35,114 nucleotides of DNA from Candidatus Omnitrophota bacterium (GTDB lineage: Bacteria; Omnitrophota; Gorgyraeia; 2-01-FULL-45-10). The stretch lies in the NCBI GenBank assembly GCA_028716065.1, contig JAQUQN010000004.1, positions 1 to 35,114 of the forward strand, read 5' to 3'. The notes beneath the pieces are model-generated. The model did no database searches, had not been told where the DNA came from, and saw nothing but the letters and a program-made list of their open reading frames with translations. Numbering within the stretch: position 1 is the stretch's first letter; the number at the start of each line of letters is the position of its first letter. A program made the translations under genes and the position numbers. This document shows, piece by piece, positions 9,337 to 34,851 of the stretch.

Positions 9337-9368
9337 ATAGTAGGGGACATTTAAATGTCCCCTACTAT
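9337..9368. repeat. 32-bp perfect palindrome, GTAG-type REP-like element (copy A)
   Basis: ATAGTAGGGGACATTT|AAATGTCCCCTACTAT is its own reverse complement. It is related to the palindrome at 19727-19756. Confidence 0.8.
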
Positions 9369-9465: not shown

Positions 9466-9556
9466 TATATTCTAGATAAAGGCAAATCCGCCGTAAGGCG
9501 GAGACGCAACATTCCAGATCTAGCATAAGATAGATGGCTGAATTGCCTAGAATATG
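9466..9556 (+). ncRNA. c-di-GMP-I (GEMM-I) riboswitch aptamer
   Basis: P1 ATATTCTAG/CTAGAATAT (9467-9475 with 9547-9555), then AAAGGCAAA, P2 TCCGCC-GTAA-GGCGGA with a GNRA loop, GACGCAA, P3 ATTC-CAG-ATCTA/TAGAT-CTG-GAAT, and TGCC. The equivalents of Vc2 G20, A47 and C92 are retained. Confidence 0.9.
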
Positions 9557-9578
9557 ACTTTTTAGGTGGTTCAGCCAT
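9534..9578 (+). promoter_or_regulatory. riboswitch expression platform: alternative 17-bp hairpin
   Basis: ATGGCTGAATTGCCTAG (9534-9550) pairs end to end with TTAGGTGGTTCAGCCAT (9562-9578), using 4 G-U pairs. It is mutually exclusive with aptamer P1/P3. Confidence 0.75.
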
Positions 9579-12500
9579 ATATATTTATGCAGATAATATA
9601 TAAATCCTCAATATTTAACTGGAAATTCATAAAGAAGACCCTTGCGGCCGTTCTGGCAGGGGTCTTTTTGTTTACGAATACTTTTAGCTGGGCGCAGGAA
9701 GAGAAGCTGTTCCTTACTGGAATGGGGAATACTTCTTCTTCCGGCCCGGCTAATACCTCCAAACTGGCCCCTAAACTTTTCCTGGCCAATGCCGAAAAGC
9801 GCGCGGAATTGCAGGCAGCGTTGATATGCGACCTCATCGAAAAAAACGCTAATTACGGCAAAAAGATTGATGAGGTTAATCTGAGAGATCTTCTTTTGTG
9901 GAAAGGCGCTAAGGACAGGGCCTTCGACAATTGCACATTTCAAATTCTGCCTGGAGAGATAAGGATAAATATACCCCAAAGCAACCTTAGCGTCCGTTAT
10001 TACGATCCACAGGTAGTGGGTAATGCCCTTCCGCCTTATTCCGATGTCCGCGACCTTAAAACACGGCCGATCGGCCCCTCGCCGTTTGATCCCGCGAGAC
10101 TTCAGAGACAGATAATCTACAGGGTAAGAGCGCTGCCGGAACCGCGCTCCGAAGAGACGTCAAAATCGCCTAGCCGGATATTCAGCATGTTTAGCGATAT
10201 GAAGGAAAATCCCGGATCAGATTATAAGAACATGCTTGGGGTATTACTTGAAAAAGCAGCTCATCTTGACAGGCCATTTGTATTAGAAATAAGGGACGAG
10301 GAAGGTAACCTCAAGAAGATTTCGATATATAGAAAAAATCTTGAAGGTGATTATGACAGGGAAGATATAAAAACTAAAGATACGAAGTATTTCGACCTCC
10401 TTGCGACAGAGGGAGCCGTCGAAGTGGCCGAAGTCAGGTTATCGAAGGATAATCTGATAATCGGTGTTACCAAATTAAGTTATGAAACTGATTTTAATAG
10501 AGTCAACATCGAAATGCGGGATATAAGGATTACGAAAGTCTTGGACGAATTGAAAAAGAGGCTTCCGATGTATGCCGAATTTATCGACGATCAGTATGAA
10601 TTGGGTTATCTTGGATGTAAAGAGATGGTCTACAAGTATGACGGTATTAACTGCCGCTACCGGATTTTACTCCCTCATTTCATAGACGAAGCCTTTAGAA
10701 AAGTGCGGCAAAAGAGAGGCTACGCGGACAACACGAGAATGGTATTTTTGAAAGCAGGGGCGGAACCTTTGGCCGAAATCGCCAGGGTGATGGCCCGCAT
10801 CGACAAAGGACGGTTTCCAGAAAGCGCTATTTGTAGCGTCTGGGGCACGATGGGTAATTATAAAGCAGTTAAAGAGGGCCTTGCGGCGCACGACCCTACC
10901 CAGGCGGCCTATTTCCTGAAATATCTCCACGACCATGGAGTTCTCGGACCGAATATAAACAATATTTTGTTCGTAGATACAGACTCCAGGATCGGATCTC
11001 GCTATGGCATGGTCTCCAGGACAGGTCCCCCCATAGGTACGGAGCTTCTCATCTATCGTACCCTATTAAACAGGGATGCTGTCAACGAAGCAAATAAGCT
11101 TTTCGGAAGAGACGGGTATGAATTTTCATGTTGGAATGAGAAAAATGGCGTTCGTTCGGCAGAGATGTTTTACATGTACATCGATCCGGATACAGTGAAG
11201 TTACCGGAATTTGCTCTGGCAGCGGAGGGTATATCCGGCGATGAACAGAAGGAATATGATACAAGGATGAATGTATCTTCTTTCAACCACGGTATTGATC
11301 TGAAAATAACAAGAAACAGGATATCTATGCTATGGGCGAAGGTGGACGATGTGTCAAAAACCGAATCAGTCGACGAAGAGTTTATTCTTAAAGATGATGG
11401 TACGGCAGGGCTGCGCAGCAGGAAACCCTACCGGCAACCGAATATGGGTGTAAGGCTCGAGATACAGAATGTGCTCGAATATGCCGGCTTCGTGATGGGG
11501 ACGCTCGATTTTATGGAGGCGCAGGGCTTCGACGTCTCCGAAGAGGCCGAGAGATACTTCGCGGAACTTGGCAGAAAATTTGAAGAAATCAGCGGGAAGA
11601 ATAGAGATAATATCAGTTTATCCAAGATGCAAGAACCATCTGTACTGACGGCATCCGCATTCGAAGATACCACGAAGCCCGGCAGCCTGCATTTTCTCGG
11701 TAAGATACTGGGAATACGCTACACGAGTTATTTTCACGCGCCTGTCATAGAGGAACTCTTCAAGATAGGGGGGCCTTTGACGTTATCTGCGATAGTGGAA
11801 AGACTCCACCCCGGCTGGCCTGTCCTGAACACGCTTGTATTCACGACTTTCCTCGCGGTTTTTGGCGTCACCTACATAATTCTTCACACGCTCAATGAAA
11901 GAGCGCCTCCCGAAGAAGCTACCGGAATAAAAGATAAGCTGAAATTTTATTATAATGAACTCAAATCCATCCGCTCTAACATCAAAGCCCTCACCAGGGA
12001 ACAAAAACTGAATATATTCCGCGGCCCCTTCCTGATAGCAGTGTCCGGAATCATAATGTCCATGATATTCATAACAGATCCATCGATGACCCTAATGAGC
12101 AGCATGCTCGCCCACCTGGTCATAGATGTTGGGATCGAGCACTTTAAGAACAATGATAAAACGCCGCCCGAGCCGGGCACGGCGGCGTACCAGAAGAATC
12201 TTGAACGTTTGAGAAGCAACCTGATAAAAGATCCTGGGAGCGTATCAACACGTGACGCTATGCGGAGTATATTGTATGAAGCAGGCATCGGCGTGAGGGA
12301 GCAGGTTTCTGATAATTTGATATCCAATCTTATATATGTTACGAGAGAACTCCTGATAAACCCCATACAATCAGCCGCATTATTGAAAAGGAATATTAAG
12401 AGCAGTTATGGGGTTGAGATGGATCTGCAGGATGTAAGGGACATCTATATATTATTGAGACGTTTGAGCGTTATCCAGGACCTCCTGACATACGAATCGG

Positions 12501-15500
12501 CAAGGCCGAGAGCGCTGAGCGTATTCAGAGAATTTTTGGCGCTAGAACCGGCCAGGATCGAAAGGATATTGGGGGGTGAAATAACGCCGTTGGCCCTTGA
12601 GATCCACCCAAGCCCGCGATGCAACTTCAGGTGCGCCCACTGTTTCAACGCGACGGCGTTGCAAAGGACCGGTGAAGTAAAAATAAAATCTTTTGCGGCT
12701 GCGGTGAGTCCCGAAGAGAAAGAGAGGGCGCTCGGGCTTATAAGCCAATATATCGCCAGCGGCGTCGACAAAATATATCTGAGTGGCGGTGGAGAGCCGT
12801 TCATGGAAGACCTGCATTCTTATATCGACCATATAAGGAAAACCAGCCCCGACATATATGTTTCCATAAATACGAATGGCGAGCTTCTTACAGAGAGAGA
12901 TATCGCGTTATGCGTCGCGAAGGTCAACAGGCTCTTTTTCTCCATGGATGCCGCGACTTCGCGCACGTTGGGGCGTCTGAAAGGCATAGAAGACAGCGAG
13001 AGTGAGGCGCGGTTCTTCAGGATCGTGAGCAATATGCGCCGGGCCGTGGCGACGAGGGATCAGCAAAGGATTGAAGGGAAGACTTCTCTGAAGATTGGCA
13101 TGGGTTTTGTCGTGGGCGAGATCAACTGTGTGGAAACGGAACAGTTCTTAAAGCTCGCGAAGGATACTGGAGTCGATTTTGTCAATTTCACCGCCCGGTT
13201 AGGTAAGGGCGAGTATGATTCAAAGATCTTGGATACGATCGAAAATATCTACCGCAAGGTAAGGGCGGGCGAGTTCGGCGGCATAGCCGTATTTTTTGAC
13301 GATTCATTCTCGCAATATCTGATGCAGAAAGAATTACGCGAGTCGAATGACGTAACCGGCAGAGAAGCGATGCTAGCAAAAGGTATCTGTTCGGTGGCCT
13401 CCGGCCTTTTGACGCCTGCTTATGCCGCTGGCGCAGGCTTTGTGTTTAGCTGCATCACTAAAGCCCAACCGGCAAATTCGAGCGACCGCTACAAGCTGTT
13501 CAATACGCGGCAGGTTGCTTTACGAAGCGTCAAGGAACTTATGGAGGATAAAAAAGCCGATTTGAGAGCATTAGACCCGGCCGAATGCGAGTATTGCAGG
13601 AAAGCGGATAAGTATATTAATGAGATAATAACAGCTATTAGAGAGGATGCAAAAGATGGTTTGAAAGTGTCTGAACTTCCGATAATTTTCTACGAGGACT
13701 CTTATCTGCGAACGATGGGCATAGGAAAAGGGGGCAGAGTCGATTTAGCCGGCTCGCAAGGGCCCGCCTTGTATCATTTGCCAGGAACGAAAACGTCGAG
13801 TTCAGGTACCGGCCCTGCGCTCTTTGTTGATCCGGACGGCACGGTGCGCGAGCTCAGTCAAGATGAACATAAGGAACTTAATCCAAAGCTTGCTGAAATA
13901 GTCGGTGACTTCGACAATCCCAATAAAGGTGTTGAGAAATTATCTCTGGGAAAGACAGTAGAGCTCTGCGGTCAAACGCATATAGGCCCGGATAAGAATA
14001 GAGGTCCTCCTGTATCGGTATACGTCATCGATGACGAAAAGCTCCCTGAAAAGTTCCAAAACGGCCTCATAACTCATGCCGGCACATTCAAAGGCAAGGC
14101 ATATAACCTCTTCATCCCGCGTTCAGTATACAACGTACTTCTTATATTAACACCAGCAGAACTACAGATCTGGCGCAACCACGAAGTCGGCCATCTCCTC
14201 GATCGCACTGCCAATATCACGCCTACAGAAGAAGAAAAAGAAGTAGCGAAGAAGATATATGAAGCTGCTAGGAAAGCCCCCGCGCCGGCAACGGCCGCGC
14301 CGCAGAAGAGGATAAGTCCGCTGAATCTTGAGAAAATGCCGGCCGGAGAGCTTTTATCCGCTTTGGGTCTAAAGGATCCTCGCAGCATAGAGGGAGCCGA
14401 TATTATCGGTGAAACAGAGGAATATGGTTATACAAGGCAAAGGATTAGCGTAAGAGAACAACTAGACCTTATTCAGCCGCCACGGGGCATATCGATTTTA
14501 CAGCGGGAGCTGGCCAACCCCGATGTCCTAAGGATTAAAGAATTCGACCTTATCTATAACAAAGATGGCCATTTGATAGCAGTCTTTCCTGTCCTGGCTC
14601 CCGGCATGAAACCGTCTGCCGATGATTTAAAATATTTTGATTTCAGCTATTATTATTTCGAAATTCCCAGCGTTAAGGATTCGGATGCGCGGGCTAAATG
14701 GACAGGATTCGCCCGTTCAAGAGAGGCGGATGCATCGTTGATAGAGGATTATAAAACGAGGCATGGTCTTGACGGAATAGAGATGGTCGGAAAGCATCAA
14801 TCGCCGTATATTTATATCGGCGTCAAAGGTGATATGGAGAATGGATGGGATCCTACCGAGATAATAATCGATGACCCTGACAATATCTTCCTGCCGGAAC
14901 CCGAGGATGGCATGGAGCAGATAATAATACCAGTTTTCCCAACGGTCTATTCGCCGGCGCATTGGATGCACAAGGGCGGTGATAAGAGGTATTATGATAA
15001 ATTTTATGAGGGTTCTCAACTGGCAAAGGGCCAGGATATACTGATAATCGGACCGGGTACGGGATGTGACACATGGCTCGCGTGGCTTAAGACGCGGAAT
15101 AAGATGTTCGCAGTAGGATATAACCCGCTGGAAATAGCCAACCTGCGCGCAACCGCTGGAATAGCCGGCTTCGAAGTAGAAGCGGTGGTCGGTGATAATA
15201 TAATCGATGAAGAAGGAAGGCCCAGGTTCGGAGAGAGGAAATTCGACCGTGTCTCCTGGAACATGCCCGCTTATAATCAGATCTATGATGTCGAAAAGCC
15301 CGGTCAGGTTATAAGATCACTTAGCGAGGCATGGGACGGGGATAAGGGGGGCGTTATCCTAAGGCGTTTCGCGAAAGGCCTTCCCGAAGTATTGAAACGG
15401 GGTAGTGGAGCGTTGTCACGGATCTGGAATCAATCTACCTATAACCCGGATATCGACATGATCATGGAAACCGGCGGAGCGAGAAATACTACCGACAGGC

Positions 15501-16798
15501 CTCTTGAGGTTGAATGGAAGAATTCCGCCTATATTATAAAATTGAAAGGCAATATTCAGGAGAAGATTATATCTGCACAGGGTACAGTTTCCGGAGATAT
15601 TAATGCTATAAGAAAAATGTTGGGGATCGAAGGCGAAGAAGAGAAGATAGTGGAGGAAAGAGCGTATAGTAACGGTATATATTATCGGGATCTTATTTCT
15701 TTTACTGAAAATTCAATAATAACGACGACTCGTATCGAACCGGCCGGCATGTCAGGAATGACGACAGACGGGGAAGGGATAAGGTGTTTCTATGAACATG
15801 AGATCGAATGGATACCCGGCAAAACAAAAATAGTTTACCGCAGGACCAAGGTAACCAAAAAAGAGGAAGTGAGCGCGAAAGAGACAGTTCGTGAAGAATT
15901 TGTAACATGCGTGTACAAGGGGCCTGAAGCGAGGGTGAAGATAGGCCTGAAAGACGGCAAACCTTTCCTCGTCATGAATGATAACGCGTTAGAATATTTC
16001 AGGCAGAAGGGTTTCGATATCAGGCGTCGTGAGGATAAGCCTTATCTTGCCATGGGGTGCTGGGGCGCGGTCCCTGAAGATAGACAGATAGCATATGTAG
16101 ACAAAAACGAAACGCTGTTCAAAGAGATGCTCGGCGAAGGGAAAGAACCGGTTCTATTGAGGGTTCCGGTGCAGGGTCTTGAGGCGATGGCCGTCGAAAA
16201 TGCCAGAGACTTCCTGGAAGCGTTCCAGAAAGCGCCCAACGCATATGTGGAATTATTTTCCACAACCGGTAGCGGTGAGGTAAACGCTGCTGATTATCAG
16301 AAAAAATACGGCTTTGAGAAAAAGTCCTTGCCCGAAGGTTTCATGAGGACAAGAAAGAATACAATAACCCTATTTGCCGCGTCAAAAGACGAGAATATTG
16401 ATAAACCGAGCATTGATTCAAGGCTTGGGTCCATTGGCATGAAACAGGAAGATACGCTTCTTTCCCCGATAATCTTGGGGTGCGATGAGGCCGGCCTCGT
16501 TAGGGCGACCATTTTCGGGTTAAAGATGCTCGAAATATCAAAAACTAGGCAAAATAAAACCAGAGAGAAGCTTTTAGCCGAGGTGTTGATGGCCTTGCTC
16601 GACTATAAAAACGCCTGCGATCCCGGCACGCCTTTTGAATTCAGTCATAAAGAGGTAGAAGATATATTGGGCCTTATCGAAGGCAATATTAACAGGGTCG
16701 TTGCCGCGTTAAAGAAGTTGCTGCAGTTCCTGCCCGCAAAACCGATAGACGGCGCAGCCCTGATAAGGCACGCGATAAAGGTCATGACAGCCGCCTAA
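9566..16798 (+). CDS. giant (2410 aa) exported/membrane mosaic protein: signal peptide, CPBP-like TM segment, radical SAM, HExxH domain, class I SAM methyltransferase (likely start ATG 9587)
   Basis: Signal KKTLAAVLAGVFLFTNTFSWA; APVIEE/F..H/H...D TM motifs; CNFRCAHC (12620-12643) with LSGGGEP and TNG; HEVGH (14180-14194); ILIIGPGTG and FDRVSWNMP. Confidence 0.9.
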   Translation: MVQPYIFMQIIYKSSIFNWKFIKKTLAAVLAGVFLFTNTFSWAQEEKLFLTGMGNTSSSGPANTSKLAPKLFLANAEKRAELQAALICDLIEKNANYGKKIDEVNLRDLLLWKGAKDRAFDNCTFQILPGEIRINIPQSNLSVRYYDPQVVGNALPPYSDVRDLKTRPIGPSPFDPARLQRQIIYRVRALPEPRSEETSKSPSRIFSMFSDMKENPGSDYKNMLGVLLEKAAHLDRPFVLEIRDEEGNLKKISIYRKNLEGDYDREDIKTKDTKYFDLLATEGAVEVAEVRLSKDNLIIGVTKLSYETDFNRVNIEMRDIRITKVLDELKKRLPMYAEFIDDQYELGYLGCKEMVYKYDGINCRYRILLPHFIDEAFRKVRQKRGYADNTRMVFLKAGAEPLAEIARVMARIDKGRFPESAICSVWGTMGNYKAVKEGLAAHDPTQAAYFLKYLHDHGVLGPNINNILFVDTDSRIGSRYGMVSRTGPPIGTELLIYRTLLNRDAVNEANKLFGRDGYEFSCWNEKNGVRSAEMFYMYIDPDTVKLPEFALAAEGISGDEQKEYDTRMNVSSFNHGIDLKITRNRISMLWAKVDDVSKTESVDEEFILKDDGTAGLRSRKPYRQPNMGVRLEIQNVLEYAGFVMGTLDFMEAQGFDVSEEAERYFAELGRKFEEISGKNRDNISLSKMQEPSVLTASAFEDTTKPGSLHFLGKILGIRYTSYFHAPVIEELFKIGGPLTLSAIVERLHPGWPVLNTLVFTTFLAVFGVTYIILHTLNERAPPEEATGIKDKLKFYYNELKSIRSNIKALTREQKLNIFRGPFLIAVSGIIMSMIFITDPSMTLMSSMLAHLVIDVGIEHFKNNDKTPPEPGTAAYQKNLERLRSNLIKDPGSVSTRDAMRSILYEAGIGVREQVSDNLISNLIYVTRELLINPIQSAALLKRNIKSSYGVEMDLQDVRDIYILLRRLSVIQDLLTYESARPRALSVFREFLALEPARIERILGGEITPLALEIHPSPRCNFRCAHCFNATALQRTGEVKIKSFAAAVSPEEKERALGLISQYIASGVDKIYLSGGGEPFMEDLHSYIDHIRKTSPDIYVSINTNGELLTERDIALCVAKVNRLFFSMDAATSRTLGRLKGIEDSESEARFFRIVSNMRRAVATRDQQRIEGKTSLKIGMGFVVGEINCVETEQFLKLAKDTGVDFVNFTARLGKGEYDSKILDTIENIYRKVRAGEFGGIAVFFDDSFSQYLMQKELRESNDVTGREAMLAKGICSVASGLLTPAYAAGAGFVFSCITKAQPANSSDRYKLFNTRQVALRSVKELMEDKKADLRALDPAECEYCRKADKYINEIITAIREDAKDGLKVSELPIIFYEDSYLRTMGIGKGGRVDLAGSQGPALYHLPGTKTSSSGTGPALFVDPDGTVRELSQDEHKELNPKLAEIVGDFDNPNKGVEKLSLGKTVELCGQTHIGPDKNRGPPVSVYVIDDEKLPEKFQNGLITHAGTFKGKAYNLFIPRSVYNVLLILTPAELQIWRNHEVGHLLDRTANITPTEEEKEVAKKIYEAARKAPAPATAAPQKRISPLNLEKMPAGELLSALGLKDPRSIEGADIIGETEEYGYTRQRISVREQLDLIQPPRGISILQRELANPDVLRIKEFDLIYNKDGHLIAVFPVLAPGMKPSADDLKYFDFSYYYFEIPSVKDSDARAKWTGFARSREADASLIEDYKTRHGLDGIEMVGKHQSPYIYIGVKGDMENGWDPTEIIIDDPDNIFLPEPEDGMEQIIIPVFPTVYSPAHWMHKGGDKRYYDKFYEGSQLAKGQDILIIGPGTGCDTWLAWLKTRNKMFAVGYNPLEIANLRATAGIAGFEVEAVVGDNIIDEEGRPRFGERKFDRVSWNMPAYNQIYDVEKPGQVIRSLSEAWDGDKGGVILRRFAKGLPEVLKRGSGALSRIWNQSTYNPDIDMIMETGGARNTTDRPLEVEWKNSAYIIKLKGNIQEKIISAQGTVSGDINAIRKMLGIEGEEEKIVEERAYSNGIYYRDLISFTENSIITTTRIEPAGMSGMTTDGEGIRCFYEHEIEWIPGKTKIVYRRTKVTKKEEVSAKETVREEFVTCVYKGPEARVKIGLKDGKPFLVMNDNALEYFRQKGFDIRRREDKPYLAMGCWGAVPEDRQIAYVDKNETLFKEMLGEGKEPVLLRVPVQGLEAMAVENARDFLEAFQKAPNAYVELFSTTGSGEVNAADYQKKYGFEKKSLPEGFMRTRKNTITLFAASKDENIDKPSIDSRLGSIGMKQEDTLLSPIILGCDEAGLVRATIFGLKMLEISKTRQNKTREKLLAEVLMALLDYKNACDPGTPFEFSHKEVEDILGLIEGNINRVVAALKKLLQFLPAKPIDGAALIRHAIKVMTAA

Positions 16799-16882: not shown

Positions 16883-17239
16883 ATGAAGAAAATCGTAATA
16901 GTAATATTAGCGTTGGCATTTGTAGCGGGTCTCTCTTACGCGGCGGAGAAGCAGCCTAAGGCCACCGAGCCGGTAGGGGCTGTCGTGGAGACGACGGGTG
17001 TATTCGTAGGTAAGATCGTAGGTGCGGCCGAGAGGGCCACCACCGGCAGCGATAAGATCACCGTTCAGAGCGATACGGGTGAGACGAGGGTATTTCCTTT
17101 TGACCAGACGGTAAAGGTCCTCGATACCTCGTTTCATGCCCTTACTTTGAATCAACTGAATCCTGGCGAAAAGGTGACGGTCGAATATTCAAAGACAGAC
17201 AAGGCGCAGAAGGCCAAGACGATAAAGGTAGCGAAGTAA
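16883..17239 (+). CDS. small secreted beta-rich protein (OB-fold/DUF5666-like, tentative)
   Basis: Classic signal peptide; FVGKIV...ITVQ...VLD...LNPGEKVTVEY pattern. Confidence 0.75.
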   Translation: MKKIVIVILALAFVAGLSYAAEKQPKATEPVGAVVETTGVFVGKIVGAAERATTGSDKITVQSDTGETRVFPFDQTVKVLDTSFHALTLNQLNPGEKVTVEYSKTDKAQKAKTIKVAK

Positions 17240-17260
17240 GCGTTCAAGATAATCATATAT

Positions 17261-17296
17261 AGCGGGGGCGGTTCATCTAACCGTCCCCGCTTTTTT
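17261..17296 (+). terminator. intrinsic terminator
   Basis: 13-bp stem AGCGGGGGCGGTT / AACCGTCCCCGCT, loop CATCT, followed by a T run. Confidence 0.85.
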
Positions 17297-17340
17297 AATT
17301 GGCTTCGGAAGGTTCTCATCTCAGGGGAAATTTTAGGGTC

Positions 17341-17370
17341 CCCGCCTTCGCCAAGGCTTCGGCGGGCAAG
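17341..17370. repeat. 30-bp hairpin module CCCGCCTTCGCCAAGGCTTCGGCGGGCAAG inserted into a TTTTAGGGTC^CTGCCACTCCCT site
   Basis: The same flanks without the module occur at 34830-34851. Confidence 0.7.
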
Positions 17371-17392
17371 CTGCCACTCCCTAAAATTTCTA

Positions 17393-17684
17393 CCCGTTCC
17401 CCAAGTAAAATATTTTGTGTCCTCAGGCGATGGCAGCATAAGATTTTTTCGCACTTTTTGTTGTAAGGCGGAACTTTTGTGGTAAGCCGGAGCGACTGTA
17501 TAAAAATGCGATACATTAAGGCGGTTTAGGCTTTATCATCGCATTTTTATCCACAGTCCCGTTACATGCCTAATGTAACGGGACGGCAAGCGGAGGCGGC
17601 CACAAAAGTAAACGCCTCACTTGGATAAAGTGCGAAAAAATCTTTAAGCCGCCTTTTGGTGCGGCACACAAAAATGATTTTACG
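17393..17684 (+). repeat. ~290-nt highly structured repeat, copy 1
   Basis: Direct repeat of 24721-25015. Stems: 18 bp (17440-57/17627-44), 10 bp (17473-82/17600-09), 13 bp (17500-12/17538-50), and side hairpin CCGTTACAT/ATGTAACGG. Confidence 0.9.
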
Positions 17685-17698
17685 ACCCGCTTTTTTAA

Positions 17699-17728
17699 TT
17701 GGAGATTTGGCGTAAGACGAGGTATAAT
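17699..17728 (+). promoter_or_regulatory. putative promoter (TTGGAG-18 nt-TATAAT)
   Basis: Perfect -10 at 17723-17728 upstream of SD AAGGAG. The -35 lies mostly in the 17-bp direct repeat. Confidence 0.45.
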
Positions 17729-17745
17729 CCTGGTAAAACAAGGAG

Positions 17746-18933
17746 ATGGATATGAAGAATATGAGATGGAACGTGTTGTCGAGGGCGGTGGCGGTGCCGT
17801 TATGTTTCTCTTTTTTGCTTACCGGCTGCGCGTCCTTTCCGGTCCAGACCGGAGCCAAATACGCCAAGGACCTCTACAGGCGTATCCCTTATAAGGTAGA
17901 GGGTCAGTACAGGGTGATAAATGTCTTTTACGCGACCGACAGGGTAGTAGAGGAGAAGAAAGATTCCTCATTATCCTTTAAGCATAAAATGGCCAAGGGC
18001 ATGACATACGGCGACCTGACCGTCAAGATAGACCCCAGCATAAAGATAGGAAAGATGCTTCCGCGCAGGTTAAAGATGAAGGGCGAGATAGGCATCCAGG
18101 AGATAGCGAGGTTGAATGACGACGTATTCATTAAGCAGTTGACCGACGCCGTCGCCGCCTCTCCGCATAACTCATTGCTCGTGATGGTATTCGGCTACAA
18201 GGACGATTTCGAGGCCACAGCCATAAAGGCGGCGTATTTCTCGTATCTTCTGGACGTCAACACACCGGTTCTCTTGTTCGATTGGCCCGGCGACCAGCCG
18301 TTCGCCATCGCAGGTTATTTCACGGCGCAGTCTTGCGCCAAGGAATCGGGGCCATATTTAGGCGAGCTATTGACGACGATAATACGTAAAGTGAAGCCGG
18401 AAAAGCTATGGGTAAAGGCATCGAGCCTAGGATGCCAGGTGGTCTGCGACGCTTTCGACCACATGTATAAATATGATGACCTTTCGGACGCGGACATGGA
18501 AATAGACCACGTTATCCTTGCCGCGCCGGATGTTGGACAGAATGAATTTGATAACCAGTTCAAGGATGAGCTGGCCGCGCTTTCGAAAAAACTCACGACC
18601 TACGTATCCTCCAATGATACGGCTCTATTGATGAGCGGGATGTTGAACCAGGAGAAGCGGCTTGGCAGGCAAAAGGAGGTCCCCCACGAACAGTTTGACG
18701 AGGCAAAGGACCTGCTCTATCTTAAGTCGCTCCATCCCGACAGGATCACCGTCATAGATGTGACGCCCATCAACGTGGCGTCTTACAAGCACGGTTATTA
18801 TCTGGAGTGCCCGGAATTTTATGACGACTTTTACATGCGTATCTTCGATAAAGACCCGAACGTGAATAGACGTCTATATCTTCTCACGTTCAAGGATAAG
18901 GTAGATTATTGGGTGCTGCAGAACGACAAGTGA
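17746..18933 (+). CDS. DUF900-type alpha/beta hydrolase lipoprotein (likely start 17752)
   Basis: Lipobox LTGC, NVFYATDR, FDWPG, nucleophile elbow ASSLG, ILAAPDV, YVSSND.AL, KHGYY. Confidence 0.85.
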   Translation: MDMKNMRWNVLSRAVAVPLCFSFLLTGCASFPVQTGAKYAKDLYRRIPYKVEGQYRVINVFYATDRVVEEKKDSSLSFKHKMAKGMTYGDLTVKIDPSIKIGKMLPRRLKMKGEIGIQEIARLNDDVFIKQLTDAVAASPHNSLLVMVFGYKDDFEATAIKAAYFSYLLDVNTPVLLFDWPGDQPFAIAGYFTAQSCAKESGPYLGELLTTIIRKVKPEKLWVKASSLGCQVVCDAFDHMYKYDDLSDADMEIDHVILAAPDVGQNEFDNQFKDELAALSKKLTTYVSSNDTALLMSGMLNQEKRLGRQKEVPHEQFDEAKDLLYLKSLHPDRITVIDVTPINVASYKHGYYLECPEFYDDFYMRIFDKDPNVNRRLYLLTFKDKVDYWVLQNDK

Positions 18934-19691: not shown

Positions 19692-19726
19692 TTATAAGAA
19701 TATAGGATATCTTATTAGAAGTCAAA

Positions 19727-19756
19727 TAGTAGGGCACCCTTAAGGGTGCCCTACTA
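19727..19756. repeat. 30-bp perfect palindrome, GTAG-type REP-like element (copy B)
   Basis: TAGTAGGGCACCCTT|AAGGGTGCCCTACTA is its own reverse complement. Confidence 0.8.
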
Positions 19757-19848: not shown

Positions 19849-21300
19849 ATGGGGCCAAAGGCCGAGAACGCGGCGGATAGCCGTATTAAGGTATCCATTT
19901 ATACGATAGCATTTATCGCTGCTTTGGCTGGATTACTCTTTGGGTATGATACCGGTGTGATATCCGGCGCGATACTTTTCATAAAGGACCAGTTCAAGCT
20001 TACCGCAGGCGCTCAGGAAGGCGTGGTCAGTTCCGTCCTCTTGGGAGCGGTCATCGGAGCAGCCTTCAGTGGCGGCATAGCCGACCGGTTCGGGAGGCGC
20101 CGTAGTATAATCGTTACCGCATTGTTATTTGCCGTTGGCGCGATAGGAAGCGCTTTGGCCCCTAATCTTAACATGGACATAGCTTATAGCCAGAGTAACT
20201 TTCATATCACGATACCGGCGGTTGCGGTCATAATACTCTTCCGGCTCATGATAGGCATAGCCATAGGCGTGGCTTCATATGTGGCGCCGTTGTATATCTC
20301 AGAGATCTCACCGGCAGACATAAGAGGCGGGCTCGTTTCCTTAAACCAACTGATGATAACCTGCGGTATTGTCGTGTCTTATTTGGTGGATTACATGCTC
20401 AGCATGGGGCAGCAGGAATGGCGATGGATGTTCGGTTTTGGCGCCATACCGGCCCTCATCCTTATAGTCGGAATGATATCCCTGCCGGATTCTCCGCGTT
20501 GGCTCATGAGTAAAGGGCTTGTCGAGCAGGCCCGCGGCGTCCTTTCACGCACTCATAGGAAAGAGAGCGTGGAAGAGGCGATAAACGAGATCAATAAGAC
20601 ATTGGGCCAGAAGGAATGCAGCTGGGCAGAGGTATTTGAACCCTGCCTCAGGCCGGCGCTCTTTGTGGGAATAATGCTCGCCTTCTTTCAACAGGTTACA
20701 GGTATAAATACGATAATCTATTACGCGCCTACCATATTTGAATTCGCCGGATTTGCATCACATAATGTAGCTATACTTGCCACTATCGGTGTGGGCATGG
20801 TGAACGTCCTCATGACAGTGGTCGCGATATGGCTTTTGGACAAAGTGGGCCGTAAGCCGCTATTATATGTAGGTATGGCCGGGATGGCATTGAGCCTTGG
20901 GATGCTTGGTGTGGCATTTTTCCTGCCGACATTATCCGGCGCGTTAAAATGGATCGCCGTCGGCAGCGTGCTATGTTATATAGCGTCTTTCGCCGTCAGT
21001 TTAGGCCCCATATTCTGGCTCCTGATAGCCGAGATATATCCTTTGAGGGTCCGGGGCAGGGCGATGAGTCTGGCAACAGTGGCCAATTGGGGATTCAATA
21101 TGATAGTGGCCGCCACGTTCCTTACTTTGATGGAAAAGCTCGGAAAACCGGGAGCGTTCTGGTTATACGGCGCGCTCTCCGTAGCCGGTATTATCTTTAC
21201 ATATCTATTCGTGCCGGAGACTAAGGGAAAGACGCTGGAACAGATAGAGGAACATCTGCGCAGCGGTAAAAGTTTAAGGACACTCAAGGCCCAGGCATAA
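19849..21300 (+). CDS. MFS sugar porter (SP family, GalP/XylE/GlcP-like)
   Basis: GLLFGYDTGVISGA, DRFGRR, PLYISEISP..RG.LVSLNQL, PDSPRWL, QQVTGINTIIYYAP, DKVGRKPLL, EIYPL..RG, PETKGKTLE. The SD-supported start at 19849 is preferred over 19759. Confidence 0.95.
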   Translation: MGPKAENAADSRIKVSIYTIAFIAALAGLLFGYDTGVISGAILFIKDQFKLTAGAQEGVVSSVLLGAVIGAAFSGGIADRFGRRRSIIVTALLFAVGAIGSALAPNLNMDIAYSQSNFHITIPAVAVIILFRLMIGIAIGVASYVAPLYISEISPADIRGGLVSLNQLMITCGIVVSYLVDYMLSMGQQEWRWMFGFGAIPALILIVGMISLPDSPRWLMSKGLVEQARGVLSRTHRKESVEEAINEINKTLGQKECSWAEVFEPCLRPALFVGIMLAFFQQVTGINTIIYYAPTIFEFAGFASHNVAILATIGVGMVNVLMTVVAIWLLDKVGRKPLLYVGMAGMALSLGMLGVAFFLPTLSGALKWIAVGSVLCYIASFAVSLGPIFWLLIAEIYPLRVRGRAMSLATVANWGFNMIVAATFLTLMEKLGKPGAFWLYGALSVAGIIFTYLFVPETKGKTLEQIEEHLRSGKSLRTLKAQA

Positions 21301-24635: not shown

Positions 24636-24720
24636 TTCAGAAGAAAGGAAATTTCGCTTCGCGGAATTCCCTATGCGTCTTATAGGGGGAATTTTAGGGT
24701 GACACGACCGAGACTTTTGT

Positions 24721-25015
24721 CCCGTTCCCCAAGTAAGATATTTTGTGTCCGGGTAGAGAGCGGTAATACAAGATTTTTTCGCACTTTTTGTTGTAAGGCG
24801 GAACTTTTGTGGTAAGCCGGAGCGACTGTATAAAAATGCGATACATTATGGCGGTTTAGGCAATATCAATCGCATTTTTATCCACAGTCCCGTTACATGC
24901 CTAATGTAACGGGACGGCAAGCGGAGGCGGCCACAAAAGTAAACGCCTCACTTGGATAAAGTGCGAAAAAATCTTTAAGCCGCCTTTTGGCGCGGCGGAC
25001 AAAAATGATTTTACG
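24721..25015 (+). repeat. ~290-nt highly structured repeat, copy 2
   Basis: Near-identical to 17393-17684. Differences are concentrated in one 17-19 nt variable segment, the apical hairpin and the basal stem. Confidence 0.9.
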
Positions 25016-25028
25016 CCCTTATTTCTGC

Positions 25029-25056
25029 TTGTAATTACAGATTTATAGGGTATAAT
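25029..25056 (+). promoter_or_regulatory. putative promoter for the galT-exporter-GH3 operon
   Basis: TTGTAA-16 nt-TATAAT, followed by SD AAGGAG and ATG 25079. Confidence 0.55.
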
Positions 25057-25078
25057 TTTATTAAGTAAAAGGAGTATT

Positions 25079-34824: not shown

Positions 34825-34851
34825 AAATTTTTTAGGGTCCTGCCACTCCCT
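34825..34851. repeat. partial AAATTTTAGGGTC-CTGCCACTCCCT repeat (empty site)
   Basis: Matches 17328-17340 plus 17371-17382 without the 30-bp insert. Confidence 0.6.

Follow-up and report, generated by a model that had tools for sequence, protein, structure and literature searches.

Among the closest described counterparts of the DNA analysed here are the REP/BIME repeats of E. coli and the REPIN-RAYT system, gene-less palindromic intergenic repeats that form mosaic clusters and do not duplicate their target. The locus lies on contig JAQUQN010000004.1 of a metagenome-assembled genome (MAG) of an Omnitrophota bacterium; the window, that is, the whole stretch of DNA that was analysed, covers 35,114 nt of this contig. 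Two exact copies of a 17-nt sequence, CCCGCTTTTTTAATTGG, bracket 383 bp of non-coding DNA between a gene for a 118-aa protein and a gene for a DUF900 alpha/beta hydrolase, and these 383 bp are not a single element but combine at least three repeat families, A, B and T, in a nested cluster. We give roughly an even chance to the reading that the 17-mer pair is a duplication of host DNA, made in a single event, which brackets the nested, gene-less hairpin cluster and preserves both the terminator of the upstream gene and the promoter of the downstream gene. As with REP and REPIN-RAYT, RAYT-like genes are present in the genome and the cluster is placed between the end of one gene and the promoter of the next. 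Unlike REP, a palindrome of 20-40 nt headed by GTAG, the T unit is 279 nt long and has a branched, covarying core; the three RAYT genes carry palindromes of their own and are unlinked to the T, B and A families; and REP sequences do not have a 17-bp duplication of host DNA.

Pneumococcal BOX, Neisseria Correia elements, ERIC and Rickettsia RPE are modular intergenic repeats or resemble MITEs, the miniature transposable elements with inverted repeats (PMC10969869, PMC3184786, and in part general knowledge). Like the present cluster, they are small, non-autonomous hairpin repeats, modular or nested, which lie beside promoters and terminators and can supply or respect these signals. In classical MITEs, each copy has a short duplication of fixed length (TA for Correia), whereas here the copies have none and one locus has 17 bp. 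A further difference is that no parent insertion sequence with the same ends and an encoded transposase was found among the T core copies or in the DDE_Tnp_1 search of the MAG. Direct repeats of target DNA that are as long as this one (17 bp or more) surround insertions of the IS1634 group, which in Mycoplasma mycoides reportedly makes long direct repeats of variable length. IS1634-group elements, however, are 1.8 kb in length with terminal inverted repeats and a DDE transposase, whereas the cluster has neither a transposase gene nor inverted repeats at its ends, the MAG has no DDE_Tnp_1 gene, and the other copies have no such repeats.

Partial tRNA duplications occur at the att sites of integrases, and E. 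coli tyrT is reportedly followed by 178-bp repeats that each contain the last 19 nt of the tRNA. Host repeats extending from a loop of a tRNA as far as its end, with an intact gene beside an orphan fragment, are likewise present in the lineage studied here, but with spacers of ~50-350 nt of hairpin repeats, with 5' fragments as common as 3' fragments, and at up to 44% of tRNA genes. The comparison with att sites is further weakened by the presence of only two tyrosine recombinases in the MAG and by the nature of the present case, which is a terminator and not a tRNA; unlike an integrase-borne element, the insert contains no gene, and its 17-mer core is found nowhere else. Group IIC introns home to intrinsic terminators and so resemble the cluster in inserting at a terminator stem-loop, but intron RNA domains and a reverse transcriptase are lacking here, and group II introns leave no duplication. 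Casposons give a 14-15-bp duplication at every copy, unlike the copies here, and no Cas1 was found in the MAG. Elements of the IS200/IS605 type use a Y1 transposase and insert without duplication beside a short conserved target word, and the comparison with them is mixed: insertion free of duplication and Y1 genes are both seen here, but at T-unit loci the left flank is conserved over more than 15 nt, and therefore probably belongs to the repeat unit, and the ends are inverted, not direct, hairpins. IS91-type rolling-circle elements have the target GTTC/CTTG and a Y2 HUH transposase; Y2_Tnp (PF04986) gave 0 matches in 41 genomes but also 0 in the control genomes, and so this search is uninformative.

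The duplication was first proposed in a sequence-only reading of the window, and it was searched for here in the MAG that holds the window (1.4 Mb in 174 contigs, ~75% complete, with 4.2% contamination). As proposed, both copies are exact, and they are the only two occurrences in the window, to which a tolerance of up to 2 mismatches adds 0 matches against 0.03 expected; no third copy was found across the 1.4-Mb MAG, even at 2 mismatches. The left copy comprises the last 5 nt of the terminator 3' arm (CCCGC), the T6 tract and AATTGG. The terminator itself is a stem-loop (17261-17291) of 13 pairs, 9 of them G-C, with a loop of 5, followed by the T-tract. The final TTGG of the right copy forms the first four bases of the -35 element TTGGAG (17699-17704) of the DUF900 promoter, which continues with an 18-nt spacer and the -10 element TATAAT (17723-17728) and was scored in the promoter scan as TGGAGA-17-TATAAT with a match of 10/12. 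The right copy therefore supplies the spacer upstream of the -35 and part of the -35, but not the complete hexamer with which it had been credited. The DUF900 gene is likely to start at 17752, after AAGGAG at 17740-17745. Scans of the filled site predict that the terminator and the promoter are both intact, in agreement with the earlier proposal that both host signals survive. When the flanks are joined, a compact ancestral site is obtained in which the terminator 3' arm and T-tract occupy the same 15 nt before the -35; judged from this anatomy, no insertion position at the reconstructed site would have spared both signals.

The distance between the 17-mer copies is exactly 383 bp, and this stretch folds well beyond shuffled sequences (z = -8.4 on the + strand and -10.5 on the - strand). 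Its four small open reading frames (ORFs) have 0 Pfam matches, and its interior, apart from a 21-nt filler at the left, is composed of repeat families, which supports the view that the 383 bp are inserted, non-coding, repeat-derived DNA. The filler, CTTCGGAAGGTTCTCATCTCA, has no traced source, and the repeat-depth profile stays at 0 until about 17326; an origin as a decayed second copy of the left half of the terminator was considered and rejected (local alignment P = 0.14-0.23). Module A derives from the terminal inverted repeat of a MITE-like family of ~230 nt (AAATTTTAGGGTCC...TGCCACTCCCTAAAATTT), has inverted ends of its own and contains a nested 30-nt hairpin at 17342-17371; further copies lie on C54, C64, C48, C7 and C10, and an uninterrupted form is present in the window at 34828-34851. 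The module B leader (AAAATTTC..CCCGTTCCCCAA) is present at at least 12 loci, often immediately after a stop codon, and precedes the T unit at most loci. The T unit is a near-perfect hairpin with terminal inverted repeats of 18-20 nt (GTAAAATATTTTGTGTCC / GCACACAAAAATGATTTTAC) and a conserved core at 17440-17644. The sequence-only reading had described one structured element without obvious terminal inverted repeats; the absence of inverted repeats was confirmed for the ends of the 383-bp block bounded by the 17-mers, but its main member, the T unit, does possess them. The sequence TCTACCCGT, left of the T unit, was rejected as a terminator remnant, given that CCCGTTCCCC is conserved at other loci and only two substitutions could favour such an origin.

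The T core occurs in ~18 copies in the MAG, many of them at contig ends and all of ~175-300 nt without an ORF, and several copies of it, at 70-85% identity, are present in each of 23 related genomes out of 41, while it is absent from other sampled families of the class. An alignment of 25 distinct copies has 48 consensus pairs, with 98.6% of cells canonical and compensatory changes at 20 pairs, from which it follows that the T fold is under selection, as RNA or as single-stranded DNA. At gathering score, Rfam returned no match in the window except a c-di-GMP-I riboswitch (9471-9550, 59 bits), which lies directly upstream of a 2410-aa ORF (9566-16798); at E values up to 10, positions 17200-17800 gave chance-level matches only, with no group II intron or retroelement RNA. 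At two loci, C137:~2590-2620 and C3:~35360-35392, the inverted end GTAAAAT of a T unit seems to overlap a convergent gene and to supply its TAA stop codon (opposite strand, ...CTCAAGAAGTAA).

A target-site duplication had been proposed as a property of the element, but the other copies argue against this. The MAG contains 17 further core copies, none of which is flanked by a repeat of at least 15 nt (none exceeds 13 nt), and the same is true of all 66 clusters in at least 20 related genomes, where the longest repeat is at most 14 nt and the lengths are distributed like those of controls in which the left flank of one locus was paired with the right flank of another. No short target duplication is evident at the aligned element ends either. 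A second A-end/B/T cluster in the window, with a T unit 97-98% identical to that of the first, has no flanking direct repeat, as the sequence-only reading had stated; 14 nt separate its right end from the -35 of a galT-like gene downstream. The T family therefore inserts without target duplication, and the 17-mer locus is an exception. The 17-mer is not a conserved part of the element, as the genome has just these two occurrences of it, and other T right flanks share only a loose C-rich-then-T-rich character with it.

The position of the cluster, in contrast to its duplication, is usual for the family. Of 12 copies of the right-end motif ACAAAAATAATTTTAC, 9 lead into a promoter match of at least 10/12, a score reached by only 0.8% of random sites, and in most of these 9 copies the -35 begins 11-16 nt past the end of the T element (15-16 nt in the present copy). 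These promoters always face the downstream gene, with the start codon 63-86 nt away, and their sequences are themselves unrelated. Together with B-type left ends that often come directly after stop codons, this means that the clusters, in a single orientation, take up the room from the end of a gene to the promoter that follows.

When the whole genome was scanned for long repeats that surround repeat-rich DNA, the 17-mer locus and tRNA genes emerged. In the MAG, 5 of 24 tRNA genes have exact partial direct copies of 13-56 nt at a distance of 73-148 nt, with hairpin elements in between, against a chance expectation calculated at ~0.004 per tRNA. The layout consists of an intact tRNA, 2-41 nt of filler and an orphan fragment, which a hairpin element inserted without duplication breaks in the D, anticodon or T loop, often after ..TTC; 5-10 nt of tRNA continue past the element. 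Ca. Velamenicoccus archaeovorus LiM (NZ_CP019384.1; L156-L185), whose genome is closed, has the same layout at 16 of its 36 tRNAs, and it is also present at 7 of 20 and 9 of 20 tRNAs in two other families (L188-L217; G029, G035) and in relatives' loci L064, L068-L072, L076 and L079; in these, 5' fragments are placed upstream and 3' fragments downstream. Several of the repeats run on into flanking DNA, by 2-19 nt and in one case by 140 nt, and are thus duplications at the DNA level and not copies of mature tRNA; a model in which the repeats stop exactly at mature tRNA ends fitted the first cases but was weakened by these overruns and by the lack of a reverse transcriptase. These cases show that duplications of host signals around hairpin elements recur in the lineage. 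A scan of ~490 kb of relatives' loci for terminator-tail duplications found nothing clearly comparable, and the literature searched contained no description of these repeats or of the orphan-fragment pattern.

One family at such sites, P, is ~76-80 nt in length (TCCCGCCTAAACCAGAC..ATGGCGGGATCCCGCCAT..GTCTGGTTTAGGCGGGA) and inserts after ..TTC and before A, without duplication and mostly into tRNA-derived loops; of the 40 genomes of the family, 11 contain it. The MAG and another genus (L069) seem to share the tRNA-Thr(cgt) case. A 3' end that resembles that of a tRNA (..GGTTCGAGTCCTCGCGGGGGAGCCA) and could belong to tmRNA is present 2-3 times within 400 nt of the LiM genome (L051:629-1035) and may represent another host RNA gene with orphan 3' fragments. 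On contig C5 of the MAG, a 58-nt hairpin-containing leader is exactly repeated at 19910-19967 and 20381-20438 before two adjacent small genes, with AAGGAGG following each; it was rejected as an insertion and looks like a shared cis-regulatory leader.

The single-event reading would account for the locus as follows. Repeat families that are spread through Omnitrophota normally insert in intergenic DNA without target duplication, with the T right end 11-16 nt before the next -35, and here this usual position would have fallen inside the terminator of the upstream gene, because the terminator tail and the upstream region of the promoter overlapped. The insertion would then have been sealed by a 17-bp duplication that spans from inside the 3' arm to inside the -35, which leaves the terminator to be completed by the left copy and the promoter by the right one. 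The duplication is likely to be a by-product of the repair or replication of one insertion, for instance by staggered-break fill-in, a template switch or a prior small duplication, and not of the element's own transposition chemistry, and it may have been retained because both signals were preserved. The elements themselves probably moved as folded single strands by means of an HUH-type enzyme. A family of RAYT-like Y1 genes is present in 33 of 41 relatives and has three members in the MAG, but each of the three is flanked by a different palindrome of its own and none adjoins T, B or A sequences; the palindrome beside the gene on C165 is of the GTAGGGCACCC..GGGTGCCCTAC type, which is also found in the window at 9337-9368 and 19724-19756. 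The same outcome, in which a host hairpin is partly duplicated, one copy is intact and elements lie between the two, appears to recur at many tRNA genes of the lineage, and the 17-mer case is best read as one of these recurrent host-hairpin duplications of the phylum.

Several points weigh against this reading. No enzyme is linked to movement of the T, B and A families, and the 21-nt filler is unexplained by any traced source. The left junction (terminator, 17-mer, filler and start of module A) is reproduced by an independent Logan contig (SRR22315506_497462, run SRR22315506), which encodes an identical 118-aa upstream protein and breaks within module A, but the right junction is seen on a single MAG contig, and we infer both the polarity of the insertion and that one molecule carries the two junctions. 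The analogy with tRNA genes is imperfect, since there the orphan encloses the element and continues as tRNA for 5-10 nt beyond it, whereas no terminator remnant is detectable here; in addition, loss of a terminator is not lethal, and selection alone would be a weaker filter than at tRNA genes. Exact-protein look-ups with both flanking genes for an empty allele or close relative returned only the Logan contig, and two metagenome scans, for the empty-site junction and for the terminator, gave no matches. The nearest homologue of the DUF900 protein among 5.8 billion proteins is just 70% identical, gene order around the gene is not kept in the relatives that share the protein (51-70% identical over full-length matches), and no close relative was present in any collection searched.

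A duplication that never took place as such is an unlikely alternative, but it has several points in its favour. Two duplication-free insertions of the same cluster, 17 bp apart in different cells or strains, could have been joined, the left junction of one with the right junction of the other, by homologous recombination within the shared element or by the assembler through the identical interior, as the family usually inserts without duplication and the site matches its usual position and is thus a possible hotspot. Reads of ~150 nt cannot phase junctions that are 400 nt apart, and the contaminated MAG contains strain-merging artefacts, namely several exact 127-nt tandem repeats that equal the word size of the assembler. 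These indicate that an assembler with word size 127 has strung strain variants together, and that local tandem structures in the MAG need read support; such an artefact was rejected as the source of the 17-nt repeat. Against the joining of two insertions, the same multi-part cluster would have had to arrive twice independently within 17 bp, and the MAG has no contig with an alternative allele. Nor can joining yield the tRNA cases, in which one parental allele would have lacked a working tRNA and which also occur in a closed genome; not all of the duplications can have arisen by recombination between two viable alleles, and another route to them must exist in the lineage.

Equally improbable, in our view, is a duplication that came first. 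The terminator tail and the segment upstream of the promoter would have undergone a short, spontaneous tandem duplication, which duplication-free elements that landed between its copies would have stabilized. The tRNA-gene elements lie in a spare partial copy with a few tRNA bases beyond them, which fits a pre-existing spare, and the repeats that pass the tRNA end by 2-19 nt are what plain DNA duplication would produce. The elements, however, must have hit the exact joint of two 17-mers and left both untouched, the 21-nt filler is not accounted for, and no uninterrupted short tandem duplication of this kind was found near tRNA genes or in the non-coding DNA of the MAG.

A true target-site duplication of the whole 383-bp unit, made by a long-stagger enzyme such as an IS1634-type DDE transposase or a Cas1-type casposase, or a 17-bp att core of a site-specific recombinase, is less probable still. 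The order host, 17-mer, insert, 17-mer, host is the geometry that such enzymes leave, and other Omnitrophota genomes are reported to contain IS1634-family elements (bioRxiv 10.64898/2026.06.07.730766). The 383-bp unit, though, has no inverted repeats at its own ends, and no other copy has such a repeat. The MAG, at 75% completeness, yielded no DDE_Tnp_1 gene (PF01609, IS4/IS1634; the search was limited to that DDE family) and no Cas1 gene (PF01867), which counts against the long-repeat insertion sequence family suggested in the sequence-only reading. The two tyrosine recombinase genes of the MAG would suit an att core, but they lie on contigs C63 and C145 and not on the contig of the window, and a single integrase cannot serve many different tRNA-linked repeats. 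Finally, RNA-templated insertion, also suggested earlier, in which a transcript of the cluster is reverse-transcribed at a nicked target, would be consistent with the RNA-like conserved fold of the T unit, with the several tRNA-linked repeats that stop at or near mature tRNA ends and with the variable long duplications that are typical of target-primed reverse transcription, but is very improbable given that no reverse transcriptase (PF00078) was found in the MAG or in 36 of 41 relatives, element-rich ones included, that Rfam scans found no group II intron or retroelement RNA, that other copies lack duplications, and that some tRNA-linked repeats enter flanking DNA by 11-19 nt and one by 140 nt.

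Table 1. Coordinates of the features discussed, in the window unless a contig of the MAG (C numbers) or a locus of a relative (L numbers) is given.
Feature	Position	Strand	Basis or remarks
Upstream gene, 118 aa	16883..17239	+	ORF list; no Pfam family; owns the terminator that holds the left repeat copy
Intrinsic terminator	17261..17297	+	Terminator scan (predicted); same hairpin in fold
Left copy of 17-nt direct repeat	17286..17302	+	CCCGC, TTTTTT, AATTGG
Private filler, 21 nt	17303..17323	+	No other occurrence in the MAG (blastn-short of pieces)
Module A hairpin	17324..17390	+	From terminal inverted repeat of MITE-like family
Module B leader	17383..17404	+	Precedes T unit at most loci
T unit	17405..17683	+	279-nt near-perfect hairpin
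Right copy of 17-nt direct repeat	17686..17702	+	Spans the 15-nt gap from T-unit end to -35; overlaps -35
Sigma-70-type promoter of DUF900 gene	17699..17728	+	Promoter scan, predicted
Downstream gene, DUF900 alpha/beta hydrolase	17746..18933	+	Pfam PF05990, E = 3e-27
Copy 2 of A-end/B/T cluster	24685..25014	+	T unit 97-98% identical to copy 1
ACAAAAATAATTTTAC and promoter sites	17668-17728, 24999-25060; contigs C9, C14, C20, C28, C31, C32, C48, C118		
RAYT-like Y1/HUH genes	C165:447-791, C154:1828-2163, C6:16342-16506		HUH and Tyr motifs intact
tRNA-Pro	C63:5913-6171		Duplicated positions 1-56
tRNA-Gly	C142:2523-2894		Duplicated positions ~1-34 (two mismatches; longest exact run 13-34), plus 62-74 with 17 nt of flank
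tRNA-Thr	C48:4433-4670		Duplicated positions 1-20
tRNA-Leu	C111:2959-3162		Duplicated positions 66-85
tRNA-Leu	C72:5077-5310		Duplicated positions 67-86
P family copies	C111:2979-3054, C63:6039-6114, C142:2784-2858, C10:13958-14031; relatives L063-L072		
Exact 127-nt direct repeats	C22:759/1059, C50:2031/2391 and 2258/2546, C69:1674/1901, C109:1067/1294		227-360 nt apart

Taken alone, the 17-mer is a modest curiosity, an insertion tolerated where two signals overlap and no base is free. The genomes of the ultra-small Omnitrophota bacteria are compact, at 1.5-2 Mb, and carry several undescribed families of nested, structurally conserved hairpins in the stretch from a gene's end to the promoter after it; in four genomes, including a closed one, 21-45% of tRNA genes are flanked by element-interrupted orphan fragments, far beyond chance. 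For annotation of tRNAs and terminators in Omnitrophota genomes, these fragments are a practical warning. A bolder and rather doubtful possibility is that the hairpin elements of Omnitrophota target host stem-loops (the D, anticodon and T loops of tRNAs, often after ..TTC, and the arms of terminators), and that insertion is mechanically coupled to a short duplication that starts a few bases beyond the insertion point, reaches approximately to the end of the transcription unit and regenerates an intact tRNA or terminator beside an orphan, possibly by HUH nicking and target-primed repair synthesis. The 17-mer would then be the terminator version of a self-compensating insertion mode, common to the whole lineage, that is not described for any mobile element. 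If insertion is so coupled to duplication, mobile DNA would have a new means of existing within structured genes that are essential; if it is not, the pattern would be a clear example of selection shaping where selfish DNA persists.

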